DNA of 64,000 nt from an uncultured bacterium. Lineage in GTDB: Bacteria > Hinthialibacterota > Hinthialibacteria > OLB16. Every line of letters begins with the position of its first letter. The first letter of the stretch is position 1. Under the pieces are notes generated by a model. The model worked only from the letters and a program-made list of their open reading frames with translations, did no database searches and had not been told where the DNA came from. Of this stretch, positions 44,201 to 57,296 are shown piece after piece. Made by a program: the position numbers and the translations under genes. The stretch lies in assembly GCA_964422415.1 (NCBI GenBank), contig CAYRBI010000008.1, forward strand, positions 3,336 to 67,335. The letters are read 5' to 3'.

Positions 44201-44623
44201 TGGTCGAGTGTTCACGATGGCATCACCACGGAAAATATATCCTTCACCGCACCTGAAACCGGTGTTTATTGGACGGTCGTCTTTGGGTATGACTTCTCGG
44301 AGTACCGTCTGCTCTGCAGCGGAAGCATGGGATCAAAGGAGTTGGTAAAGACACCGTCGTTACTGGCCAAAGGAACCCGCCGTAGCCCTGATTTCAACCC
44401 ACCCCCGGTAGACACAGAGCTCCCGGAAAAGATTTTGATTCCTTCCTTCAGCGCGGATCTCTATCCAGATGGCACGGTTGACTACAAGGACCTTTTCAAA
44501 CTGTCGAGATTGTGGGGAAAGGCCATGGGCGATGCGGGTTATGATGCCCGCTTGGGGGGCGTTGATACAGACCACCGCATCGGAGGAACACATTTACTGC
44601 AATGGTTGGGAATACGGCGGTAA
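41297..44623 (+). CDS. large secreted BNR/Sortilin-type repeat protein with PT linker, CARDB-like and PPC-like domains and a dockerin-like C-terminus
   Basis: Signal peptide MRRLLLVSVFLFSLPLSPCSA. At least 9 SxDxGxxW-type repeats (YDTGLNW, DNRGDQW, TDRGENW, NDMGQTW, KDDGATW, QDSGQHW, PDDGVTW, DNTGTTW, ENDGANW). PTPTPSVSPTPNVTPTYTPPP linker. DLYPDGTVDYKDLFKL near the end. The upstream part of the 41075 ORF is rejected. Confidence 0.85.
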   Translation: MNLEVVMRRLLLVSVFLFSLPLSPCSALDDWREYGPPGGAMLSLISDSSHEVFIAATSTQVYRSYDTGLNWEALPSMPDASGIKDAVLVGDSESGLMVCTNTNGIYRWDPSSQSWLLKITGIQSSSPYALQFFDLSVVTSTSTRVFVGCSTGLYYSDNRGDQWYKITLPYENTSPQYKMVTQVQAARDGSVYVYTYTPIRIESDLVTASYFVMKPGLPSTALSGAMIWPNPNNANELVMIFNGIYYSTDRGENWSSPSAGQVPPSPVAVDWLYGKPTVFGVTSTCVLNRSTLAWSRLWSRSIRTQYRAVERDTVSGHLLIASQSRGVWRSNDMGQTWTYSSNGMSAYGAVYAVGVDPANSSIVYAGMQTEGVWRTKDDGATWEERNTGFDSDPAYSVSIRSIAVDPVHTNHLLAGTETQGGTPAWLYQSQDSGQHWTKVSTGPTGLAYCIFFVPSNPSVILVGTGMDGIWRSPDDGVTWSRVADKEVYRNVLDFAQEKGGRIFTALIGGFNPTNGYGYSDNTGTTWNVVEESASCSLAADPVRAGRVMRGTGWWDAGAGMLYTSSNGTKWDAVNTGLPTRVYGYDMADSTVADPNHSGTYYTFLPNSGVFETENDGANWTQVGTLTEGNTLEFSTRKQGTLFVGRGYEGIWYYQTAEAMPTPTPSVSPTPNVTPTYTPPPWFPPMATKTPTIPAQPNVGAADDATWFSPTNPKAGESVSVGSLLFNNSTTAVSNIRVDFYVGTDLNNLPLLSTVTVPSLAARSRLPVQSVSNFLTPTAGTYYVKVKIDPLNAVSEYDETDNEVQTAFYARFGGADKTPPTGSIRIDSGSLFTYDMNVHLDLNTTDTGSGVGYMYVTGWVYDPRFGGLAKYYESGWIDYLASASFLIEGGYFEALSVTYADLDENVSDTYWAVTNYYPTEYTEFVFWDESLYYPMYLTTGANVTLTVNHVFGDSDLYVIAPSTPDGYYDWSSVHDGITTENISFTAPETGVYWTVVFGYDFSEYRLLCSGSMGSKELVKTPSLLAKGTRRSPDFNPPPVDTELPEKILIPSFSADLYPDGTVDYKDLFKLSRLWGKAMGDAGYDARLGGVDTDHRIGGTHLLQWLGIRR

Positions 44624-44780
44624 GGGGCCGCTACAGACTGAACAACATTACATGAGAGAAGAACTCTTTTTGAAAATGCATATGGGATGAATCTTCACAA
44701 ACTGATTCCCCACACCTAGACTTGCCTAGGTCAAAGGAAATCGTCAACAGCCAGAGACGTGCGGCGAAGGATCTGGGACA

Positions 44781-45281
44781 ATGAAGATTGTCGGGGATTA
44801 TTTGCACCAAAAAGCACTGAAGCTTACGAATAACCCAGAAGAAATGGACCTCTTTGCAAGGAGTGCTTTCAACCGGTACTACTACGCTTGTTTTCATCTA
44901 GCCCGAAATCTGGTTGCCGACATTCATCCCACTTCTGTGGGAGCAAATCACAAACAATTTCATGAAACAATTCTAACCACAACTATCCAGAGCGAGATAA
45001 AGAAAATTGCGGAAAACCAGTTGAAGAAAAAAGTCATCGACAGATCGCACTTTTCCTCCATCGTATCAAGCTCGAAAAGATCACTCAGTCAACTTGAAGA
45101 TATACTCAGACGAGCATACTCGGTAAGGTGTATCGCCGACTATCATGGAGAGGAAGTGGTCTGCCTAGAAGGAGGAAACCTTACTCTTACAGGGAAGACA
45201 TTACACGAGGCCAGTATGTGGCCAAAACGGGCCGCCATATACTGCAAGGAAATTAAGAAGCAATGGGATGAAATAGGATGA
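44781..45281 (+). CDS. hypothetical HEPN-like protein, candidate effector of the retron-like system
   Basis: 166-aa helical ORF in the low-GC island. N-terminal FARSAFNRYYYACFHLARNLV and C-terminal LRRAYSVRCIADYHGEE resemble the two conserved HEPN helices, with an R-x5-H (R116..H122) candidate catalytic motif. Confidence 0.55.
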   Translation: MKIVGDYLHQKALKLTNNPEEMDLFARSAFNRYYYACFHLARNLVADIHPTSVGANHKQFHETILTTTIQSEIKKIAENQLKKKVIDRSHFSSIVSSSKRSLSQLEDILRRAYSVRCIADYHGEEVVCLEGGNLTLTGKTLHEASMWPKRAAIYCKEIKKQWDEIG

Positions 45282-45287
45282 AATAGG

Positions 45288-46055
45288 ATGAGACCTGAGT
45301 CAGAGGTAATCGAGACAGTTAGACAGGTCGTGAAGAAGTGGTTTCCACGAGTCTGGCGGCACGCCTCTGTATGGCTTATAGAGGATCGTCTTATCGTCGA
45401 TATACCGTTCCCGATCTCCCAAGAGAATAACAAAGGAACCCCTGTTACGGGGAGGCGGCTTGCCAACCTCAAGAATGCACTTGAGGCAGCCACCAACCTT
45501 CAAGTTACTCTTGTTTTGAAATCTCCAGAGAATCAGGGGGACCTGGAAAATGGGATAAATGCTCTTATAAACACCATTCAACCAGGAGCGATTGACCAAG
45601 TCCTTATATCATCTCCCCTCTCAAACACTGTCGATGTTATCATGACTGTCAATAGTGGAAGATCCACTCTGTCGTCTGGAGCATCCGAGAAAATCAAATC
45701 CGTTGTTCAACGGTGTATATCCTTGGCGGGGCTGGAAGTAGGATCTATACATATCATTGGTTTCCAGAAGGAACTACCAACCACTAGCCAAATTCTTGCC
45801 TCTCTCAAGACCATTCAACCAGCTCAGGCAGGAGATCTAGCGGCATGGTTAATTAACAAAGGGTTTGGTATTCCAAGAGAGAAGTGGGTTGAGTCTCAGA
45901 TGGATGCCCTTCGGAAGAAGGGGCTCGTAGCATCTTTGAAAACTAAATCCTACGTTCTAACACAATCCGGACTTGAAGCAGTTCCAGGTATCAAAGGCAG
46001 TGTTAAAAGCGATGTGGCTCGCGCACTTGCCATGCGTGGAAGGAAGTGGGTATGA
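45288..46055 (+). CDS. hypothetical protein with a C-terminal winged-helix-like domain
   Basis: 255-aa ORF starting 6 nt after the previous stop. The C-terminal ~70 aa (SQILASLKTIQPAQAGDLAAWLINKGFGIPREKWVESQMDALRKKGLVASLKTKSYVLTQSGLEAV) has a wHTH-like helix-turn-helix plus wing pattern. The N-terminal ~165 aa are unrecognised. Confidence 0.5.
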   Translation: MRPESEVIETVRQVVKKWFPRVWRHASVWLIEDRLIVDIPFPISQENNKGTPVTGRRLANLKNALEAATNLQVTLVLKSPENQGDLENGINALINTIQPGAIDQVLISSPLSNTVDVIMTVNSGRSTLSSGASEKIKSVVQRCISLAGLEVGSIHIIGFQKELPTTSQILASLKTIQPAQAGDLAAWLINKGFGIPREKWVESQMDALRKKGLVASLKTKSYVLTQSGLEAVPGIKGSVKSDVARALAMRGRKWV

Positions 46056-46063
46056 TAACCTCA

Positions 46064-46240
46064 GGAGTGGTGGAGTGGAGAATGCGAGGGGATGAATCAT
46101 CCCCGCAAAAGCGGTGGTTTCGGTTTGAAGGGCGCCGCCCGGATGGGAGTCGCTCCTTCGAATCAACTCCCATCCGGGCGGCTTCCTTTACGCAAGTCAA
46201 CGTGACTTGGCTGGATGCCAGATGATCGCTCCACCGCTCC
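46064..46240 (+). ncRNA. candidate retron msr/msd non-coding RNA
   Basis: 12-nt terminal inverted repeats ggagtggtggag (46064-46075) and ctccaccgctcc (46229-46240) pair with one G-U. A short hairpin lies at 46088-46094/46098-46104. A 17-bp perfect stem lies at 46134-46150/46166-46182. The whole region sits directly upstream of, and slightly overlaps, the RT gene. Confidence 0.5.
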
Positions 46241-47190
46241 TTGTTTCCTTCCCAGATGCTCAGTCTTTCCTCTCAGTACTAAACGAGGAGTGTAGAGTTC
46301 GCTGCTCTCAAGAAGTCATATATCACTCCTCTAGGAAACTGCCCCCGATTGTTTCAAAAAGATCTCTTGCTGTCCTTTTTGGGTACTCACCAAGATTTGT
46401 CGGGGCAATGTGTGTTCGACCTCAGAGGTATTACCGCCACTTCCTCATACCGAAGGGAAAAAAGTCTCGTAAGATTGACGCTCCCCGAACTTCACTAAAG
46501 GTTATTCAGACATGGTTCGGATACCATCTCTCACGTGCCATAGTCCTTCCAGATTGTGTCCATGGATTCGTTCCAGGAAGATCGACCACCTCAGCTGCCC
46601 ATGTACACTGTGGGGCTGAATGGGTGGTGACCCTCGACATTCAAGATTTCTTCCCTTCGACTGGTGAGAGTCACATCAGGGATTGTTTATTGGAACTTGG
46701 GTATAGCAATGAGGGTACGACTCTCATTCTACAACTTATGACTTTGGATGGTTATCTCCCGCAAGGGTCACCTGCGAGCCCAGTCCTCTCGAATCTTGCG
46801 TTCCAGCACTCAGACTGGGAAATTATACAGCTTTGTCAGAAATTCTGTATTCAATATACTCGGTATGCTGACGACCTCGTATTTTCAGGAAAAGGGCAAG
46901 TCCCGGACACGCTTGTTAATGATGTAACCAAGATTATTGAACGGAGAGGTTGGCGGATTGCGTCAAGCAAGACTCGAATCAGGCACCTGCCACAATCACT
47001 GAAGGTGTTAGGGCTATTGGTTCACGGAGCCATACCAAGGCTGCCAAAACGATACAGGAACCAACTTAGGGCAATGAAGCATCTACTTGACACCAAATCT
47101 TTGAGTGAACCAACACTAAAGGTATTCAAAGGGCACGTGGCATATGCCATGTCAACCTCACAAACCGGGAATGGGACAAGGAAGGGATGA
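46207..47190 (+). CDS. retron-type reverse transcriptase
   Basis: YYRHFLIPKGKKSRKIDAP, VTLDIQDFFPS, LPQGSPASPVLSNL, YTRYADDLVFSG (YADD), and VLGLLVHG at the retron VTG position. 327 aa with no maturase or endonuclease domain. The true start may be ATG 46222. Confidence 0.85.
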   Translation: MAGCQMIAPPLLVSFPDAQSFLSVLNEECRVRCSQEVIYHSSRKLPPIVSKRSLAVLFGYSPRFVGAMCVRPQRYYRHFLIPKGKKSRKIDAPRTSLKVIQTWFGYHLSRAIVLPDCVHGFVPGRSTTSAAHVHCGAEWVVTLDIQDFFPSTGESHIRDCLLELGYSNEGTTLILQLMTLDGYLPQGSPASPVLSNLAFQHSDWEIIQLCQKFCIQYTRYADDLVFSGKGQVPDTLVNDVTKIIERRGWRIASSKTRIRHLPQSLKVLGLLVHGAIPRLPKRYRNQLRAMKHLLDTKSLSEPTLKVFKGHVAYAMSTSQTGNGTRKG

Positions 47191-47567
47191 ACGAGTATTG
47201 TTGCCATTCTCTTTTTTTCCCTGCATCTGAATCTACCTCATGTAATTCTATACAACACTCTGTAGTGGGGGGCCGCTCCTACGAGCAGTCCCCCATTATA
47301 GATGGATTTTCTTCCGTCTCTCTCATTCCCGCCAATAATTCTGAAAGTCCAAAACCTCATACTTTTGACGCTCACCTTTTTGCGATTGCCCCAACAGTTC
47401 TAAAAGGTCACGTGCGTCGATCATGCCATCACCCACACCCACCGGCCAGACATCATAGTTGGAAGACGATGTGATTTGCGCAGATTCATGGTCGGCTTGA
47501 CTTAGCTCCACACTTTGTTTCGTTCATTCTTCCTTGACACCCCCCCTCTGGATGCTACTTTTCCCAC

Positions 47568-51276: not shown

Positions 51277-52494
51277 TTATCCTTTACGGCTATTGTCATG
51301 TGAAACGAATGATTCCGCCATCCGCCGCCGGCGTCCGCCCTGCCCTACCCCGACCTCACGTCCAATCGCGGCCAGACGGTTCTTGAGGCACTCAGCACAG
51401 ATGATAGCGCTTTCATAAATGCAGGCTTTGTCTGGATAAATCTCATAGAGCACGCGGTACTTGGAGGGAGTCAGATTGGGCATGACCACATTCGCGCCAC
51501 AGGCCAAGCCTTTCTCGCGCCCCTCGGCCTTGTCGAGGGTGGCCAAGGCGGTGGTACTGGGGATGTTGGCCTCGGGACACACCAGCCGCGCCAGAGCCAC
51601 AACCTTGCAGGTCATGGTCACTGTGTTGGGCACCTGATCCGGTCCCAGAGATGATTCATCGTGAATGGCCGGCCTTCCAAAAATTGGAAGTTGCCGGGGC
51701 ACCGTAGATTCACGCTGCCGCGGGAACGACGGCTCCCCAAGGATACCGCCCGTTTCATTAAGAACTAAGCCTAGCTCACCCAGAGGGGTATCCGGGTGCC
51801 GCAGGAATGGCCCCATGCCAATCATGTCCAGGTCGAGGTCCCGGAAGGTCAGAATATCCTCCGCTAGGGACTCATAGGTCTGACCAGGAATTCCGACCAT
51901 CACCCCGCTGCCCACCTCATACCCTAGTTCACGCAAAAAACGCAGGATCATCATCCGGTCCGGAGCCCCAGCGGGTGTTGGATGGATACGCTCATACAAG
52001 GCGCGGTCCGAGGTCTCGAAACGCAGGAGGTAACGATTCGCACCAGCCTCTTTCCAGAGGTGGAGTTCGGACTCTGTCCTTTCACCCAGGCTGAGAGTCA
52101 CCGCGAGAGGCGTATTGGCCTTGATCCAGCGTACTACCTCCGCCATCCACTCCGCTGAAATTCCCGGGTCCTCGCCGGCTTGGAGTACAACGGTTCCGTA
52201 TCCCAGATCGACCGCGGTTCGCGCACAGTCCTGGATCTCCTCCATGCTCAGCCGGTAGCGTTCCAATCCACGGTGTCCCGCGCGCAATCCGCAATAAGCA
52301 CACTGACGTACACAGTGGTTGGAGATCTCAACCAAACCTCTCAGGTGGACCGCATCGCCCACATGGGCCTGGCGGACCGAATCCGCCCAGGACCACAACC
52401 GTTGTAACTCGGTTTCGTTCTCCTCATGCAGCCAGGCGAGTATGTCCTCGCGAGTAAGAGAGCGTGTTGACATCTCCATTTTTGTAAAGCTCAT
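51277..52494 (-). CDS. hydE: [FeFe]-hydrogenase maturase HydE (radical SAM) with a ~45-50-aa internal insertion
   Basis: CVRQCAYC CX3CX2C motif and BioB/HydE-like blocks (GIPGQT, GPFLRHPDTPL, NIPSTTAL, CGANVVMPN). Located in the hydG-hydF-hydE cluster. Confidence 0.8.
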   Translation of the reverse strand: MSFTKMEMSTRSLTREDILAWLHEENETELQRLWSWADSVRQAHVGDAVHLRGLVEISNHCVRQCAYCGLRAGHRGLERYRLSMEEIQDCARTAVDLGYGTVVLQAGEDPGISAEWMAEVVRWIKANTPLAVTLSLGERTESELHLWKEAGANRYLLRFETSDRALYERIHPTPAGAPDRMMILRFLRELGYEVGSGVMVGIPGQTYESLAEDILTFRDLDLDMIGMGPFLRHPDTPLGELGLVLNETGGILGEPSFPRQRESTVPRQLPIFGRPAIHDESSLGPDQVPNTVTMTCKVVALARLVCPEANIPSTTALATLDKAEGREKGLACGANVVMPNLTPSKYRVLYEIYPDKACIYESAIICAECLKNRLAAIGREVGVGQGGRRRRMAESFVSHDNSRKG

Positions 52495-53741
52495 GAATGG
52501 CTTCCCTTCATCCCCATGTGGGCTTGATAGAGATCCCGCGCCGCCGGGAAGGGTTGTAGAGCCCGCTCGAAGATCCCCAGGCTGTATGCGATCACAAGAC
52601 CATAATTTGAAATAGGGACACCCACCTCACGGCAGTGCAGAATCCGCGCCAGCATCTCGCGGCGGTTCAACATACACGCCCCGCAATGAATCACAAGTTT
52701 GTATTCCGCCAGGTCATCCGGGAAATCATGGCCTTGCACATGGGTGAACTCGAGCTTACCACCCACATATTGGGTCAACCATCTTGGGATCTTCACCCGC
52801 CCGATATCCTCGCCAATGGGATGATGCGAACAGGCCTCGGATACTAGAACCCGGTCCCCGGTCTGCAAGCTGTCCACCGCCAAGGCTCCCTCAACCTGAG
52901 TGAGGAGATCGCCCTTGAAGCGTGAGAACAGGATCGAGAAACTGGTCACGGGCACCCCAGGTGGAGTATCCGCAACCACCTTGAGGAAAGCCTGGGAATC
53001 GGTTACCACCAAATCCGGTGGTACCGTGAAACGGCCGAGGATATGACGCAGTTCCCGTTCCTTGACCACGGCGCAACAGGCATCGTTATCCAACAGATCA
53101 CGGATGGCCTGTACCTGTGGAAGGATGAGCCGGCCCTTGGGGGCCTCTTTGTCGATGGGCACCACCAGCACCGCCAACCCGCCGGGGGGAACCAAGTCTC
53201 CCAGGATCGAGGGGTTGTTCAAAAGCTCCGCCGGAACACTTTCTAAAAGAGCTTGACGGAGATCTGGAATTCCACGCCCCGTATTGGCGGAGGTATAGAC
53301 TACCCGGACTTCTTGGTTCTGGAGACGATTGATGAGATTCGCGGCCGGTTGTCCGAGATCGCATTTATTAAAAACCACGATGGTGGCGATACCCGCCTCT
53401 AAAAACACCTTGAGCAGGTTCTCCTCGAAGGTGCCCCACTGATCCGCCACAGCCACCAGCAGGGCCACCTCGGTCCGCTCGATGACCTTACGGGTCTTCT
53501 GCACCCGCATCTCACCGAGTGCCCCCTCATCATCGATTCCCGCCGTGTCGATGAACAAGACCGGACCGAGCGGAAGCAATTCCATCGGTTTCTCTACCGG
53601 GTCGGTGGTGGTCCCGGCCTGCTCGGAGACAATGGACACCTCCTGGCGGGTGATGGCATTGAGCAGGCTCGATTTCCCCACATTGCGCCGTCCAAAGATA
53701 CCGATATGCAGCCGCATCGAACGCGGAGTGGTTTGCATCAT
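52491..53741 (-). CDS. hydF: [FeFe]-hydrogenase maturation GTPase HydF
   Basis: G1 GRRNVGKSS, G3 DTAG, G4 NKCD. C-terminal cluster motif CSHH ... HCGAC. 4-nt overlap with hydE. Confidence 0.9.
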   Translation of the reverse strand: MMQTTPRSMRLHIGIFGRRNVGKSSLLNAITRQEVSIVSEQAGTTTDPVEKPMELLPLGPVLFIDTAGIDDEGALGEMRVQKTRKVIERTEVALLVAVADQWGTFEENLLKVFLEAGIATIVVFNKCDLGQPAANLINRLQNQEVRVVYTSANTGRGIPDLRQALLESVPAELLNNPSILGDLVPPGGLAVLVVPIDKEAPKGRLILPQVQAIRDLLDNDACCAVVKERELRHILGRFTVPPDLVVTDSQAFLKVVADTPPGVPVTSFSILFSRFKGDLLTQVEGALAVDSLQTGDRVLVSEACSHHPIGEDIGRVKIPRWLTQYVGGKLEFTHVQGHDFPDDLAEYKLVIHCGACMLNRREMLARILHCREVGVPISNYGLVIAYSLGIFERALQPFPAARDLYQAHMGMKGSHS

Positions 53742-53783
53742 GTCTTATTCCTCATATATCCAGGCTACGCGGTGATACCCAAC

Positions 53784-55286
53784 TCACTCTCCAGCCCCCC
53801 TCTCCCATGAAGCGAGAGGAGTATCCTCTCCCTCTGCTTGTGGGAGAGGGGGGCTGGAGGGGTGAGGTGGGACAGGTGTGCCCAAACGGCAGACCGCCTC
53901 AGGAGAAATCAAGTTCTCAAACTCCTTTTGCGTCATCAGGCCCTTTTCCAGGACCACTTCGCGGATTGTTTTCTTCATCTTGCCTGCTTCCCACGCCACC
54001 TCGCAAGCTTGTTCATACCCCAGCACCGGCAGCAGGGCAGTTACAGCTGCGGTGGAACTATCCACATGAGCTCCACAACGGCCCTCGTTGGCTTCGATCC
54101 CCTCGACACACAACCGCCGCAGAATACCGCAGCCCCGTGCCAGGAGCTCCAGACTCTCCAGAAGACATTCGGCGATCAACGGCATGAAGGGATTCAATTC
54201 AAGGTTGCCAGAGGCACAGGCCAAAGTAAGGGTTGCATCATTGCCGATGACCTTCATCGCAACCTGGCTGGCCGCCTCGGGGATCACCGGGTTGACTTTG
54301 CCTGGCATGATCGAGGAGCCAGCCTGCCGCGCGGGGAGCTGGATCTCCCCCAAGCCTGCATCAGGCCCCGAGGAAAGCAGCCGCAGATCGGTACAGATTT
54401 TTATCAGGGAGGCCGCGCAGGCCTTCAGAATCCCGGAGACCTCCACAAAGACATCCGCATTCTGGGTGGCGTCGATCAAATTCTCCGCACGGGCAAATCC
54501 GATTCCAGTGATTTCCCGGAGGTGGTCCACCACACGGAAGATGTACTCACGAGGCGCGGTAAGGCCGGTCCCAATGGCGGTTCCCCCAAGGTTGACCACC
54601 CGCAGCCGCTCCTCGCATTTGTAGATCCGCCAGCGATCCCGGTTCAATGCTTCAGCATACGCGGACATTGTACGCCCCAACGTGGTGAGGACCGCATCCT
54701 GCATCTCGGTCCGTCCCACCTTGACCACATGGGCGAAACGCTTCTCGGCGGATTGAAAGGCTTCCTGGAGCAGTACGGTCTGTTCTTCGAGGTTACGGAC
54801 CAGGCGGATTGCGGCCAGTTTGAGCGCCGTAGGATAGGTGTCATTCGTGGACTGGTGAAGATTGAGATCATCGAGGGGTGAAACCCGTTGATATCGACCA
54901 TGGGGTTCACCAAGTAATTCTAGTGCGCGGTTGGCCAGCACCTCGTTAACATTCATGTTGGTACTAGTCCCCGCTCCGCCTTGAAGAGCATCCACGGTAA
55001 CATGCTCATCCAACACCCCCTCGGCCATCTCCTGGCAGGCGCGCAGGATGGCATCCACTTTGGATGGATCATCGGGCCACACGCCCAGGTCCCGGTTGGT
55101 CACCGCACAAGCCAGCTTCACCGTTCCGTAGGCGTGGACCAACTCGCGGTGGACATACCGCCGCGCCAGGGGGAAATTCTCCAACGCACGGAGTGTGTGG
55201 ATCCCATGGAGAGCCCCCGCTGGAACCAAGATCTCTCCGAGAAGGTCGCGTTCGATACGGAAAGGGGTGTCATCGTGGGGTGACAT
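53784..55286 (-). CDS. aspA: aspartate ammonia-lyase / class II fumarase family protein
   Basis: Signature GSSIMPGKVNPVIPE plus TNMNVNEVLANRA and HQSTNDTYPTA. The last ~25 codons run into palindromic repeat 53791-53857. Confidence 0.9.
   Translation of the reverse strand: MSPHDDTPFRIERDLLGEILVPAGALHGIHTLRALENFPLARRYVHRELVHAYGTVKLACAVTNRDLGVWPDDPSKVDAILRACQEMAEGVLDEHVTVDALQGGAGTSTNMNVNEVLANRALELLGEPHGRYQRVSPLDDLNLHQSTNDTYPTALKLAAIRLVRNLEEQTVLLQEAFQSAEKRFAHVVKVGRTEMQDAVLTTLGRTMSAYAEALNRDRWRIYKCEERLRVVNLGGTAIGTGLTAPREYIFRVVDHLREITGIGFARAENLIDATQNADVFVEVSGILKACAASLIKICTDLRLLSSGPDAGLGEIQLPARQAGSSIMPGKVNPVIPEAASQVAMKVIGNDATLTLACASGNLELNPFMPLIAECLLESLELLARGCGILRRLCVEGIEANEGRCGAHVDSSTAAVTALLPVLGYEQACEVAWEAGKMKKTIREVVLEKGLMTQKEFENLISPEAVCRLGTPVPPHPSSPPLPQAEGEDTPLASWERGAGE
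53791..53857. repeat. nested GC-rich palindrome (family B) overlapping the aspA-like 3' end
   Basis: ccagcccccctctccca (53791-53807) pairs with tgggagaggggggctgg (53841-53857). An inner gagagga/tcctctc hairpin lies between the arms. Confidence 0.8.
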
Positions 55287-55449
55287 ATGAGGTTGATTTT
55301 ACGATAAATCCGAAGACAAGGCAGTGGTTGGTTTCTCAACTCCCCCCAAAAAAAGGGGGCTTACATACAGGCCAATTCTGTTGTTGAAAAGGTTGAGGCC
55401 AACACTTACACTTTCCCAAAAGACCTTCAGAAACGAGGCACACCCAAAA

Positions 55450-55842
55450 ATGAGTGCCGAAAGAAATCCCATTCCCCGGTCTTTCCATCTCACTCCTGAT
55501 GCGCGCCTATCCTCCCTGGAAAATCTACAACCAAGATGGGATGGGGAAGACGCCGAAGTTCCCAATTCCTATTCGATGGATCTCGCGGGATGTGTGCTTA
55601 CACATCTTGACGAGAGAAGGATTCATCCCACCGCCATCATGCCCTGCATTGACGGAGGGGTGAGTATCGCCATCCATGTTGAGAAGCAAAAGATCCTTAT
55701 CGAGTGTTACAACACCAAAGTCCTGGCGGTATCTCTTGTCTCAACAGACCTTCAGATGAATGACAATTTCTCTCTTACAGATCCCACGGAAGCAGAGGTT
55801 TCCGAGGGCATCCAGCGTATTCATGATTTCCTTGTGATCTGA
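55450..55842 (+). CDS. hypothetical protein on the opposite strand inside the hyd cluster
   Basis: 130-aa ORF from an internal ATG (MSAERNPIPRS...). No recognisable motifs. It fills the gap between the aspA-like gene and hydG. Confidence 0.35.
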   Translation: MSAERNPIPRSFHLTPDARLSSLENLQPRWDGEDAEVPNSYSMDLAGCVLTHLDERRIHPTAIMPCIDGGVSIAIHVEKQKILIECYNTKVLAVSLVSTDLQMNDNFSLTDPTEAEVSEGIQRIHDFLVI

Positions 55843-55880
55843 TGGACCAGGGGCGGGGGTCTCCCCCCGCCCCACTTCTC

Positions 55881-57296
55881 CTAAACGTAAACATCTCTCT
55901 TCCCCGCCTTGACCTGCGCAAGGAGTTTCTCGGAGGTGATCCGGGTTTTTTCCGGCATGGTGGCCACCGACTCGGCGATGCACTTTTCACCAGCCCGTTT
56001 TGTTTCCGGATCGGCATAGTCCTCAAGATACTCCTGAAAGGTTGAGACGGCGTTGGGATCGCAGTGATCCTTGATCTCGCCGGGTTTAGCAAGATCCATA
56101 AAATCCCCACCAGTACGTCCCAAGCGGTAGCAGGCAGTGCAGAACGAGGGGATGTACCCCAGTGATGAGATGTCACGGATGACCTCGGGCAGAGAACGGT
56201 GATCGCCGAGGGAGAACTGGGCTTCATCGGCACGGTCTTCCCCTTCCGCATATCCGCCTGGATTGGTCCGGCTCCCCGCCGAAATTTGCGACACCCCCAA
56301 TGCGAAGGTTTCACGCCGGATGTTAGCGGTCTCGCGGGTCGACATGATGATACCCGTATATGGCACGGTCAGCCGCAGGATCGCCACGATCTTGCGGAAG
56401 TCAATGTCAGATACCGGATGCGGCGGATGCGTGGCGATATCCGATCCGGTTGCGGGCTCCATGCGTGGAACACTGATTGTATGCGGTCCCACACCGAAGA
56501 CCTGTTCCAGATGCTGGATATGCTGCATCAGCGCGAGAATCTCAAAACGCCAATCGAACAAGCCGAAGAGGATCCCCACGCCAACATCATCGATTCCCGC
56601 CTGCATGGCACGGTCCATCCCGGTCACACGCCAATCGTAATCGGCCTTCTTCCCTTTCAGGTGGACCCGTTGGTAGGTCTCCCGGTGATAGGTCTCCTGG
56701 AAGAGCTGGAAGGTTCCAATCTTGGCGGCCTTGAGACGCCGGAAATCCTCGACACTCATGGGCGCCAGATTAGCGTTGACACGGCGGATCTCACCATGCT
56801 CATGCTTGGTGGCGTAGACGGTAGCGATTGAATTGAGAATATAATCGAGACCCTCCGCCGGGTAGGACTCACCCGCCACCACCAAGATCCGCTTGTGCCC
56901 TTGATCGATGAGGAACCGCACCTCGCGAGCAATCTCCTCCTGGTTCAACGCACGCCGGTGGACTTCTCTGTTCCTGGCGCGGAAGGCGCAATAGGAGCAC
57001 TCATTACTACACAGGTTGGAGATGTAGAGAGGTGCGAACAACACCAGCCTACGGCCATAAATGAGCTCCTTGACCTCCTTGGCGGTACGAAACATCTCAC
57101 CCAGAAGATCTGGATCACTCACCGCCATTAACAACGCCGTTTCCTCTTGCGATAGACCCTTGAGATCCCGCGCTTTCGTGAGAATCTCCTGGACCCGGTG
57201 CTCATCGGGGCGCTTATTGGCGTTGAGGACCGACTCGATCCTGCGCTCATCGATAAAGGTGCACTTATACTCTTCAATATCCACTGCCATTCTCAT
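55881..57296 (-). CDS. hydG: [FeFe]-hydrogenase maturase HydG (radical SAM tyrosine lyase)
   Basis: CSNECSYC radical SAM motif and C-terminal CTAC-x22-C auxiliary cluster motif. Confidence 0.9.
   Translation of the reverse strand: MRMAVDIEEYKCTFIDERRIESVLNANKRPDEHRVQEILTKARDLKGLSQEETALLMAVSDPDLLGEMFRTAKEVKELIYGRRLVLFAPLYISNLCSNECSYCAFRARNREVHRRALNQEEIAREVRFLIDQGHKRILVVAGESYPAEGLDYILNSIATVYATKHEHGEIRRVNANLAPMSVEDFRRLKAAKIGTFQLFQETYHRETYQRVHLKGKKADYDWRVTGMDRAMQAGIDDVGVGILFGLFDWRFEILALMQHIQHLEQVFGVGPHTISVPRMEPATGSDIATHPPHPVSDIDFRKIVAILRLTVPYTGIIMSTRETANIRRETFALGVSQISAGSRTNPGGYAEGEDRADEAQFSLGDHRSLPEVIRDISSLGYIPSFCTACYRLGRTGGDFMDLAKPGEIKDHCDPNAVSTFQEYLEDYADPETKRAGEKCIAESVATMPEKTRITSEKLLAQVKAGKRDVYV

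Follow-up and report, generated by a model that had tools for sequence, protein, structure and literature searches.

Within the 64,000-nucleotide stretch of contig CAYRBI010000008.1 that was analyzed here in full (the window), from an uncultured Hinthialibacterota bacterium, four adjoining elements on the forward strand make up a complete type IX retron, an anti-phage system of bacteria, as this type is defined by Mestre et al. (2020; PMC7736814): a gene for a HEPN toxin (44781–45281), a gene for a winged-helix (WH) protein (45288–46055), a noncoding RNA (ncRNA; 46063–46241), and a gene for a retron reverse transcriptase (RT; 46222–47190), in that order. The region 46063–46241 is the msr-msd ncRNA of this retron, an assignment that we regard as virtually certain. 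The locus is a new and divergent member of a known retron type that has been characterized only recently, both structurally and functionally, in three preprints of July 2026 (including bioRxiv 10.64898/2026.07.14.738597, bioRxiv 10.64898/2026.07.14.737667, and PMC13405049), and standard defense-system profiles already recognize it.

The HEPN effector gene encodes the toxin/RNase of the system, a protein of 166 aa that is matched over its full length by the PADLOC profile HEPN_IX (E = 1.1e-41) and that is also similar to the chain "Retron-Kva2 HEPN" of PDB entry 36ht (E = 6e-11). H57 and R116 of the window protein align with the catalytic H64 and R122 of the Kva2 toxin, and the conserved His/Arg pair of type IX is therefore present. 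The WH accessory gene, of the winged-helix/helix-turn-helix kind, encodes 255 aa and matches PADLOC HTH_IX (E = 5.4e-44) and the chain "Retron-Kva2 WH" of 36ht (E = 5e-11).

The RT was assigned 322 aa, with translation starting at ATG 46222; the mechanically called open reading frame begins at TTG 46207 and has 327 aa, and the ATG fits both the RT_IX profile and the N-terminus of the Kva2 RT. Residues 7–318 of the protein align with positions 2–313 (of 317) of PADLOC RT_IX (E = 1.1e-118, 394 bits), and the runner-up among the PADLOC RT types, III-A, reaches about half that score (221 bits). RVT_1 (5.5e-17) is the sole Pfam family found in the RT, and its best PDB matches are solved retron RTs, including the "Retron-Kva2 Reverse Transcriptase" of 36ht (E = 6e-68). 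The translation contains the catalytic motif YADD, in the context RYADDLVFSG. A NAxxH motif and a VTG triplet have been named as marks of retron RTs (Mestre et al., 2020; PMC7736814); inspection by eye places SAAHVH (type IX consensus AAxxH, in which the A and the H are invariant) and KVLG (KVHG in type IX) at the corresponding sites of the window RT. The N of NAxxH and the T of VTG are replaced throughout the type IX clade, with the motifs still recognizable by eye at the expected places.

The nearest relatives of the RT, among 5.8 billion proteins, are just 50–52% identical to it and come from metagenome-assembled genomes (MAGs) of Verrucomicrobiota, Prosthecobacter being the sole named source. 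Among the 40 relatives with a hit, HEPN is found upstream of the RT in 39 and WH in 36, and both occur, in the same order as in the window, in 35. The phage and plasmid collections yielded no phage match, just two plasmid matches (Photobacterium and Leisingera), and no Klebsiella locus. In Rfam, no retron or msr family was found across the whole window at gathering thresholds or between 40 and 52 kb at E ≤ 1, the sole match being a chance microRNA elsewhere.

Folding of positions 46055–46250 with RNAfold gave a minimum free energy (MFE) of -103.5 kcal/mol, compared with -69.3 ± 4.5 kcal/mol for a background of 200 dinucleotide shuffles (z = -7.68), none of which equaled it. A first-pass annotation of this DNA, made from the letters alone, had proposed this interval for folding and had read in it a terminal pairing of GGAGTGGTGGAG (46064–46075) with CTCCACCGCTCC (46229–46240) over 12 positions with one G-U, a 7-bp msr hairpin (GGGGATG/CATCCCC, 46088–46094/46098–46104, loop AAT), and a perfect 17-bp msd stem (46134–46150/46166–46182) with a 15-nt loop. 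The MFE structure holds every one of these stems, and in it the terminal stem lengthens to 15 bp (46063–46077/46227–46241). Three elements had been overlooked: a further hairpin designated stem-loop 3 (SL3), a 3-bp helix that closes the msr hairpin, and a promoter-like site upstream.

As delimited by the covariance model and RNAfold, the whole ncRNA (46063–46241) extends from the start of the 5' arm of the terminal stem (46063–46077; the a2 repeat of the first-pass annotation) to the end of its 3' arm (46227–46241; the a1 repeat), with which it pairs. Downstream of the 5' arm lies the msr module (46083–46113), the predicted element bound by the RT thumb, which was recovered by RNAalifold on a sequence-only alignment and in which the 3-bp helix (46083–46085/46111–46113) surrounds the 7-bp hairpin via an internal loop. 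The predicted msd template of 75 nt (46117–46191), placed by positional homology with Kva2-like loci, includes the long msd stem-loop (46134–46182), composed of the 17-bp stem and the 15-nt loop CGCTCCTTCGAATCA (46151–46165). This loop is that of the type IX family consensus, its core CCTTCG being nearly invariant in the alignment, and the consensus CGCTCCTTCGAATC is retained in the window. The template is followed by a conserved G at 46192, the predicted opposing G that would not be copied (context AC-G-stem; equivalent to Kva2 G121), by SL3 (46193–46209), the predicted priming hairpin CAAGTCA-ACG-TGACTTG with a 7-bp stem (46193–46199/46203–46209) that is present in the MFE structure, and by G46210, the predicted branching (priming) G (context stem-G-CU; equivalent to Kva2 G139). 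The 3' arm of the terminal stem corresponds to RT codons 3–7 (A-P-P-L-L).

Two pairings of the MFE structure are particular to the window: GAAGGG/UCCUUU (46127–46132/46184–46189), which extends the msd stem, and a 4-bp mini-hairpin CUGG/CCAG (46211–46214/46218–46221) directly before the ATG of the RT. As candidate family elements both were rejected, since they have no counterpart in the relatives, and we regard them as lineage-specific or incidental.

A scan of species-representative genomes identified 41 type IX-like RT loci (L001–L041), and viral contigs contributed six more (L081–L086); the remaining matches of the RT scan belong to other retron types. The comparison set comprised 43 loci, including the window, from Verrucomicrobiota, several proteobacterial classes, Spirochaetota, Planctomycetota, and phage contigs. 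In every type IX locus, the 200 nt upstream of the RT contain the same elements in the order seen in the window. These sequences were aligned with MAFFT from sequence only (alignment A2) and were realigned under the guidance of a covariance model (alignment A4). Applied to A2, RNAalifold found the msr helices and the msd stem, and 25 of the 27 pairs showed compensatory changes; it did not find the terminal stem or SL3 in these 43 loci, because arm registers and loop lengths vary among them; this was resolved by explicit counting of pairs, covariance-model realignment, and a test of cognate against non-cognate duplexes.

In A2, 85.6% of the cells of the window's five helices are paired, as opposed to 37–44% when the partners are slid by one to three columns, and the covariation score is 0.50 compared with approximately 0.09 (none of 500 shuffles scored as high). 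The paired fraction rises to 90.0% in A4; over the two alignments, paired cells amount to 85.6–90.0% vs. 36–48% for slid partners, and covariation scores to 0.50–0.60 vs. 0.08–0.13. Pairs that have changed on both sides number, in A4, 11 of 13 in the terminal stem, two of three in the helix that closes the msr hairpin, six of seven in the msr hairpin itself, all 17 in the msd stem (93% of cells paired), and four of six in SL3; the helices of the msr module are 99% paired, with changes on both sides at eight of their 10 pairs. The basal pair of SL3 covaries (AU 36, CG 2, GC 2, UA 1, GU 1), and at its fifth pair the counts are CG 19, UA 7, UG 4, AU 2, and GC 1. Most relatives have the stem AAAGC/GCUUU in SL3, whereas the window has CAAGUCA/UGACUUG, with a compensated change at the basal pair. 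Because the terminal arms shift in register from clade to clade, the terminal stem was also tested in an alignment-free manner: for each locus, the stretch 5' of the msr helix was paired with that 3' of SL3, and the energy of the duplex was computed. Cognate arms gave a mean of -24.1 kcal/mol, which was not attained in any of 10,000 permutations, and non-cognate arms averaged -14.2 kcal/mol.

A covariance model built from the 43-locus alignment (R1), in which the window is part of the seed and whose seed loci match by construction, scored 106–167 bits on 42 of its 43 own loci and 62 bits on the divergent L014, which has a short msd. When run on 113 loci of other retron types, amounting to more than 600 kb, R1 gave no match at E ≤ 0.01. 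Because the window sat in the R1 seed, a second model (R2) was built from the 42 other type IX loci (alignment A5). This model matches 46064–46242 with 122.2 bits (E = 2e-29), which is the sole plus-strand match in the 64-kb window, and it flags no non-standard pair. Minus-strand matches of 28–33 bits in the window were considered as a possible second gene and rejected, as they are mirror images of palindromic stems. The five helices, which constitute the terminal clamp, the msr module, the long msd hairpin, and SL3, are conserved by covariation across distant bacteria. The covariance-model test that the first-pass annotation had put forward came out in favor of its msr/msd architecture beside an RT, with the msr hairpin first and the long msd stem second.

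The closest named counterpart of the window locus is Retron-Kva2, a type IX retron of Klebsiella variicola (PDB 36ht; bioRxiv 10.64898/2026.07.14.738597; PMC13405049), which matches it in all four parts and in their order. The two ncRNAs are alike in having a 5' arm, a 17-nt msr hairpin, a linker, a template of approximately 75–76 nt with a long hairpin, a G-flanked SL3 of 17 nt, and a 3' arm in the first RT codons. They differ in the terminal stem, which has 15 bp in the window and approximately 10 bp in Kva2-like loci, and the loci differ in that the window retron is chromosomal, between housekeeping genes. The landmarks published for Kva2 are a linker at 35–44, a template from G45 to C120, an opposing G at 121, and a branching G at 139, which is at the 3' base of stem-loop 3; cDNA reads span G45–A115 of the 173-nt ncRNA and end before stem-loop 3, and cryo-electron microscopy indicates that the msr hairpin G18–C34 is recognized by the RT's thumb domain (bioRxiv 10.64898/2026.07.14.738597). 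The Kva2 RNA was represented here by proxy, using viral-contig loci from IMG/VR whose RTs are 58–63% identical to that of Kva2 (L082, L084, and L085). In these Kva2-like loci the ncRNA, counted from where the 5' arm begins to where the 3' arm ends, has a length of exactly 173 nt, and the landmarks agree with the published numbering: the hairpin at 18–34 (G...C), the linker at 35–44 (A...G), G45, A52–A57, UCAAC at 116–120 (giving dG1–dA5), G121, and the branch G at 139–140. Transfer of this layout to the window by way of the model alignment places the msr hairpin at 46088–46104, its closing helix at 46083–46085/46111–46113, and termination near G46117; the msr module of the window corresponds to Kva2 G18–C34.

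Canonical retron RNAs are ordered a2, branching G, msr hairpins, msd hairpin, opposing G, a1. Retron reviews and Mestre et al. (2020; PMC7736814) give as the general rule that inverted repeats close the RNA end to end and that the branching G lies next to them. The first-pass annotation had proposed a branching G among positions 46076–46080, just 3' of a2. If this rule applied to the window, a2/a1 would be the priming helix, the branch would be at G46078 (the first G outside the 15-bp stem), and the cDNA would start from approximately 46226 and take in the start codon of the RT, SL3, and the msd hairpin over approximately 110 nt. The terminal stem is indeed real, strong, and covarying, and Gs do come after a2 in the window. 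However, there is no conserved G between a2 and the msr helix in the 43 loci, G being the majority base in none of the columns of this spacer, so the proposed position of the branching G was not borne out. Within the window itself, U46076 and G46077 are paired in the MFE structure, and G46078 faces U46226, with which it can pair, so that no G/G opposition exists at the inner end of the stem. The lack of a branching G directly after a2 is a departure from canonical retrons that is common to the whole type IX family.

The conserved signature AC-G...G-CU sits instead at SL3. The 5' flank of SL3 is a G in 42 of the 43 loci, with a C just before it in 32 and an A two positions before it in 37, and its 3' flank is a G in 41, followed by C (39) and U (38). 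Because this conserved G/G pair flanks SL3, where the Kva2 study places its branching and opposing Gs, the a2/a1 stem is probably not the priming helix. The first-pass annotation had taken the a2/a1 pairing for the closure of retron transcripts; the stem stands as a real, conserved, and covarying structure, and the priming role associated with such a closure probably does not, given that no G is conserved after a2. The Kva2 cDNA reads, which cover only G45–A115 and end before stem-loop 3, also speak against a cDNA that begins at the terminal repeats. Priming from a2/a1 is therefore an improbable account of the window RNA, and we favor SL3 as the priming element, with G46210 the likely priming residue. 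A further point in agreement comes from an experimental retron census, in which the first copied base mostly gives dG and the branching G is often preceded by TTA: in the window, C46191 would give dG, and TTG (TTT in the family) precedes G46210.

The same flanking context, also in agreement with priming at SL3, is found in Retron-Eco1 (Ec86). Both Ec86 and the window have an RT of the retron clade (E = 3e-21 for the window RT against 7v9u) and an msr hairpin that precedes a long msd hairpin, and both have a G on each strand at the end of the priming stem, in the context AC-G-stem...stem-G-C. For Ec86, whose RNA sequence was verified in 48 Escherichia coli genomes, this context is at the inner end of the a1/a2 stem, and we take its branch site to be the G of stem-G-C. 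The two differ in how the stem would be formed. The priming stem of Ec86 is made from the two ends of the RNA (a2/a1), with the branching G 5' of the msr hairpins; in the window it would be the closed hairpin SL3, located 3' of the msd, and a separate clamp, overlapping the coding sequence of the RT, joins the ends of the RNA.

The order of elements in the window is clamp arm, msr hairpin, msd hairpin, opposing G, SL3, branching G, clamp arm. Just as a2 does in canonical retrons, the 3' strand of SL3 precedes the branching G, and its 5' strand, like a1, follows the template and the opposing G; SL3 can thus be understood as a priming stem that has been closed by a loop. Judged by these element orders, the type IX ncRNA would be a circularly permuted form of the canonical retron RNA whose ends would now lie between the msr hairpin and the branching G, and the terminal stem probably serves as a clamp that joins the two ends of the permuted RNA.

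Overall, we consider it likely that the window encodes a type IX retron ncRNA that is primed from SL3 at G46210 and gives rise to an msDNA (multicopy single-stranded DNA) of approximately 75 nt. The parts, the fold, the covariation, and the family membership were computed, and from homology with Retron-Kva2 and Retron-Yin1 we infer the steps of activity as follows. The RT thumb would bind the msr hairpin, and the RT would prime from the 2'-OH of G46210 at the 3' base of SL3, copying from C46191 leftward through the msd hairpin and stopping near G46117 to yield the approximately 75-nt msDNA. RNase H would then remove the template, with 46117–46123 left as a 7-nt RNA-DNA hybrid, and 5' trimming would free a hairpin DNA of approximately 70 nt that is still annealed to the msr fragment. 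The predicted 75-nt msDNA (GTAAAGGAAGCC...CCGAAAC) folds as DNA into a hairpin of approximately 19 bp (-27.9 kcal/mol). The WH protein would bind the conserved msDNA loop, and the RT-msDNA-WH complex would keep the HEPN RNase from acting, within an RT-msDNA-WH-HEPN assembly of higher order. HEPN would be released when phage nucleases or other phage proteins damage or bind the msDNA, and would then cut tRNA or rRNA and thereby cause growth arrest. The msDNA stem-loop is the WH-binding, defense-essential element in both Kva2 and Yin1 according to the 2026 type IX preprints. Compared by description, Retron-Yin1 and Retron-Sen3 have the same set of RT, ncRNA, helix-turn-helix (HTH) protein, and HEPN as the window; their conserved ncRNA was found by covariance models, and the msDNA stem-loop serves both as a scaffold and as the target of the trigger (bioRxiv 10.64898/2026.07.14.737667). 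Arg116 of the window HEPN aligns with the catalytic Arg of the type IX family.

Several points weigh against this account of priming and activity. The transfer of function relies on conservation at the level of the family, because the nearest RT relatives are only approximately 50% identical to the window RT. The Kva2 branch assignment was itself deduced from cDNA sequencing and read ends, for which its authors write "these results suggest." Of the two parallel type IX preprints, one terms the ncRNA architecture canonical and names no branch position, and the other mentions only initiation at a priming guanosine from the inverted repeat region, likewise with the branch position unnamed. In five of the 43 loci (L016, L017, L018, L020, and L026), SL3 is weak and AU-rich, with 3–4 bp in place of AAAGC/GCUUU, and L020 does not have a G at the 3' base of SL3. 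The linker between msr and template is 2 nt longer in the window than in the relatives, and the termination point is therefore uncertain by approximately 2 nt. Finally, the evidence for the promoter described below is limited to agreement with the consensus, and the region has no excess of such matches over shuffled sequence.

The loci with a weak SL3 are a scattered set, from Shewanella, Paracoccaceae, Methylovulum, and Nitrosomonas, and their priming site may differ from that of the rest of the family. L032 (2298–2479) varies in another way, with an insertion of approximately 21 nt in the SL3 loop alongside intact basal AAAG/CUUU pairs and flanking Gs. Additional sequence in this loop thus seems to be tolerated, a point of relevance to engineering.

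The first-pass annotation had also observed that a1 lies within the first codons of the RT, so that ncRNA and RT gene overlap; with translation from ATG 46222, a1 occupies codons 3–7. The 3' arm of the clamp encodes the conserved Pro-Pro-Leu N-terminus of the RT, and synonymous sites in this arm change together with the 5' arm. Clamp pairs at the first and second positions of both Pro codons are invariant G-C, and those at the third positions of the Pro and Ala codons vary in concert with their partners (A4 columns 213–225): UA 30 and CG 10 at one, UA 19, CG 5, GC 3, and AU 3 at another, and CG 13, GC 11, UA 5, and AU 5 at the last. As synonymous sites follow their RNA partner, selection is acting on the terminal stem even though one of its arms is coding.

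Of 37 loci that were tabulated, most have a clamp that extends over the region where RT translation is initiated; for loci in which the 3' arm appears to lie upstream, the putative start comes from extrapolation of a tblastn offset. With the 3' arm inside the initiation footprint, folding of the clamp and initiation of RT translation are probably mutually exclusive. Such an arrangement would also fit if the RNA were a retron relic or a purely cis-regulatory leader, which is not reverse-transcribed and only controls RT translation through the clamp over codons 3–7, and retron decay does occur in the type IX family, at least one relative (L003) being visibly decayed. The window, however, has an intact full-length RT with YADD, an intact HEPN with its His and Arg, and an intact full-length WH, every helix of the ncRNA is present with no non-standard pair relative to the family model, and the msd loop is at the family consensus. 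A regulatory role would not, in any case, exclude templating. We therefore view a relic or leader as very unlikely and retain the reading of a retron ncRNA that is reverse-transcribed from SL3.

Locus L003 (2315–2512), from a Candidatus Binatia MAG, keeps the RT, SL3, and the 3' clamp arm, and the 5' half of its ncRNA is replaced by unrelated sequence; no homolog of HEPN or WH was detected upstream, and the locus looks like a retron that has decayed or been rearranged.

Beyond the joining of the RNA ends, we tentatively propose that the terminal stem of type IX is a dual-coded clamp that does not serve priming, such that the transcript would act as RT mRNA with the clamp open and as substrate for reverse transcription with the clamp closed. 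If this is true, the clamp would be a built-in switch that sets the ratio of RT to ncRNA. The strings "permut," "overlap," and "start codon" are absent from the main text of the two 2026 type IX preprints other than PMC13405049.

A sigma-70-like promoter sequence (TTGCCA-18 nt-TATGAT, 46027–46056, plus strand; 10 of 12 consensus matches) was found by consensus scan. It ends 7 nt upstream of the a2 stem, its -10 hexamer overlaps the stop codon of the WH gene (TGA 46053–46055), and the predicted transcription start (approximately 46062–46064) is at the first base of the a2/clamp arm. The pattern TTGnnn-N16–18-TAnnnT recurs weakly at the same place in homologous loci; a conserved stand-alone promoter was rejected, as only 13 of the 43 loci reach at least 8 of 12 consensus positions, and the site is offered as a suggestion only. 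A second promoter consensus match lies upstream of the HEPN gene (44694–44722).

The retron block (44400–47400) has a G+C content of 0.45–0.51, about 5–10 points lower than that of its flanks (0.53–0.60). It is located among genes of housekeeping or carbohydrate metabolism, between a gene for a 1182-aa BNR/CARDB/PPC protein and a gene for a GH57 amylase, with genes for an MFS transporter and hydrogenase maturases further downstream. No tRNA gene was found in the window, and no integrase or other defense gene was seen near the retron, which looks like a small horizontally acquired insertion and not like part of a defense island. An open reading frame of 95 aa (47187–47474) that overlaps the stop codon of the RT has no Pfam or PADLOC match and is probably non-coding. 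The 377-nt gap before the GH57 gene (47191–47567) may hold the operon terminator, although none was detected by a simple scan. Further downstream, on the minus strand (51277–57296), are genes for a radical-SAM protein, HydF (with GTPase and HydF dimer/tetramer domains), a lyase of the aspartase/fumarase class, and a BATS radical-SAM protein; this cluster looks like an [FeFe]-hydrogenase maturase set (HydE/F/G), which points to an anaerobic host.

These findings settle the annotation of the locus as a complete type IX retron, with the boundaries and parts of its ncRNA stated to the base. They are also relevant for the prediction of msDNA sequences from genomes, and for DNA-writing tools based on type IX retrons, in which donor insertions and trimming of the ncRNA must respect SL3 and the clamp. 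The points of note to specialists are confined to those at the level of the family, namely the support for non-canonical priming and the dual-coded clamp. For the former, the comparison of 43 loci independently supports a recent claim, not yet peer-reviewed, that priming in type IX retrons starts at a hairpin 3' of the template and not at the terminal repeats.

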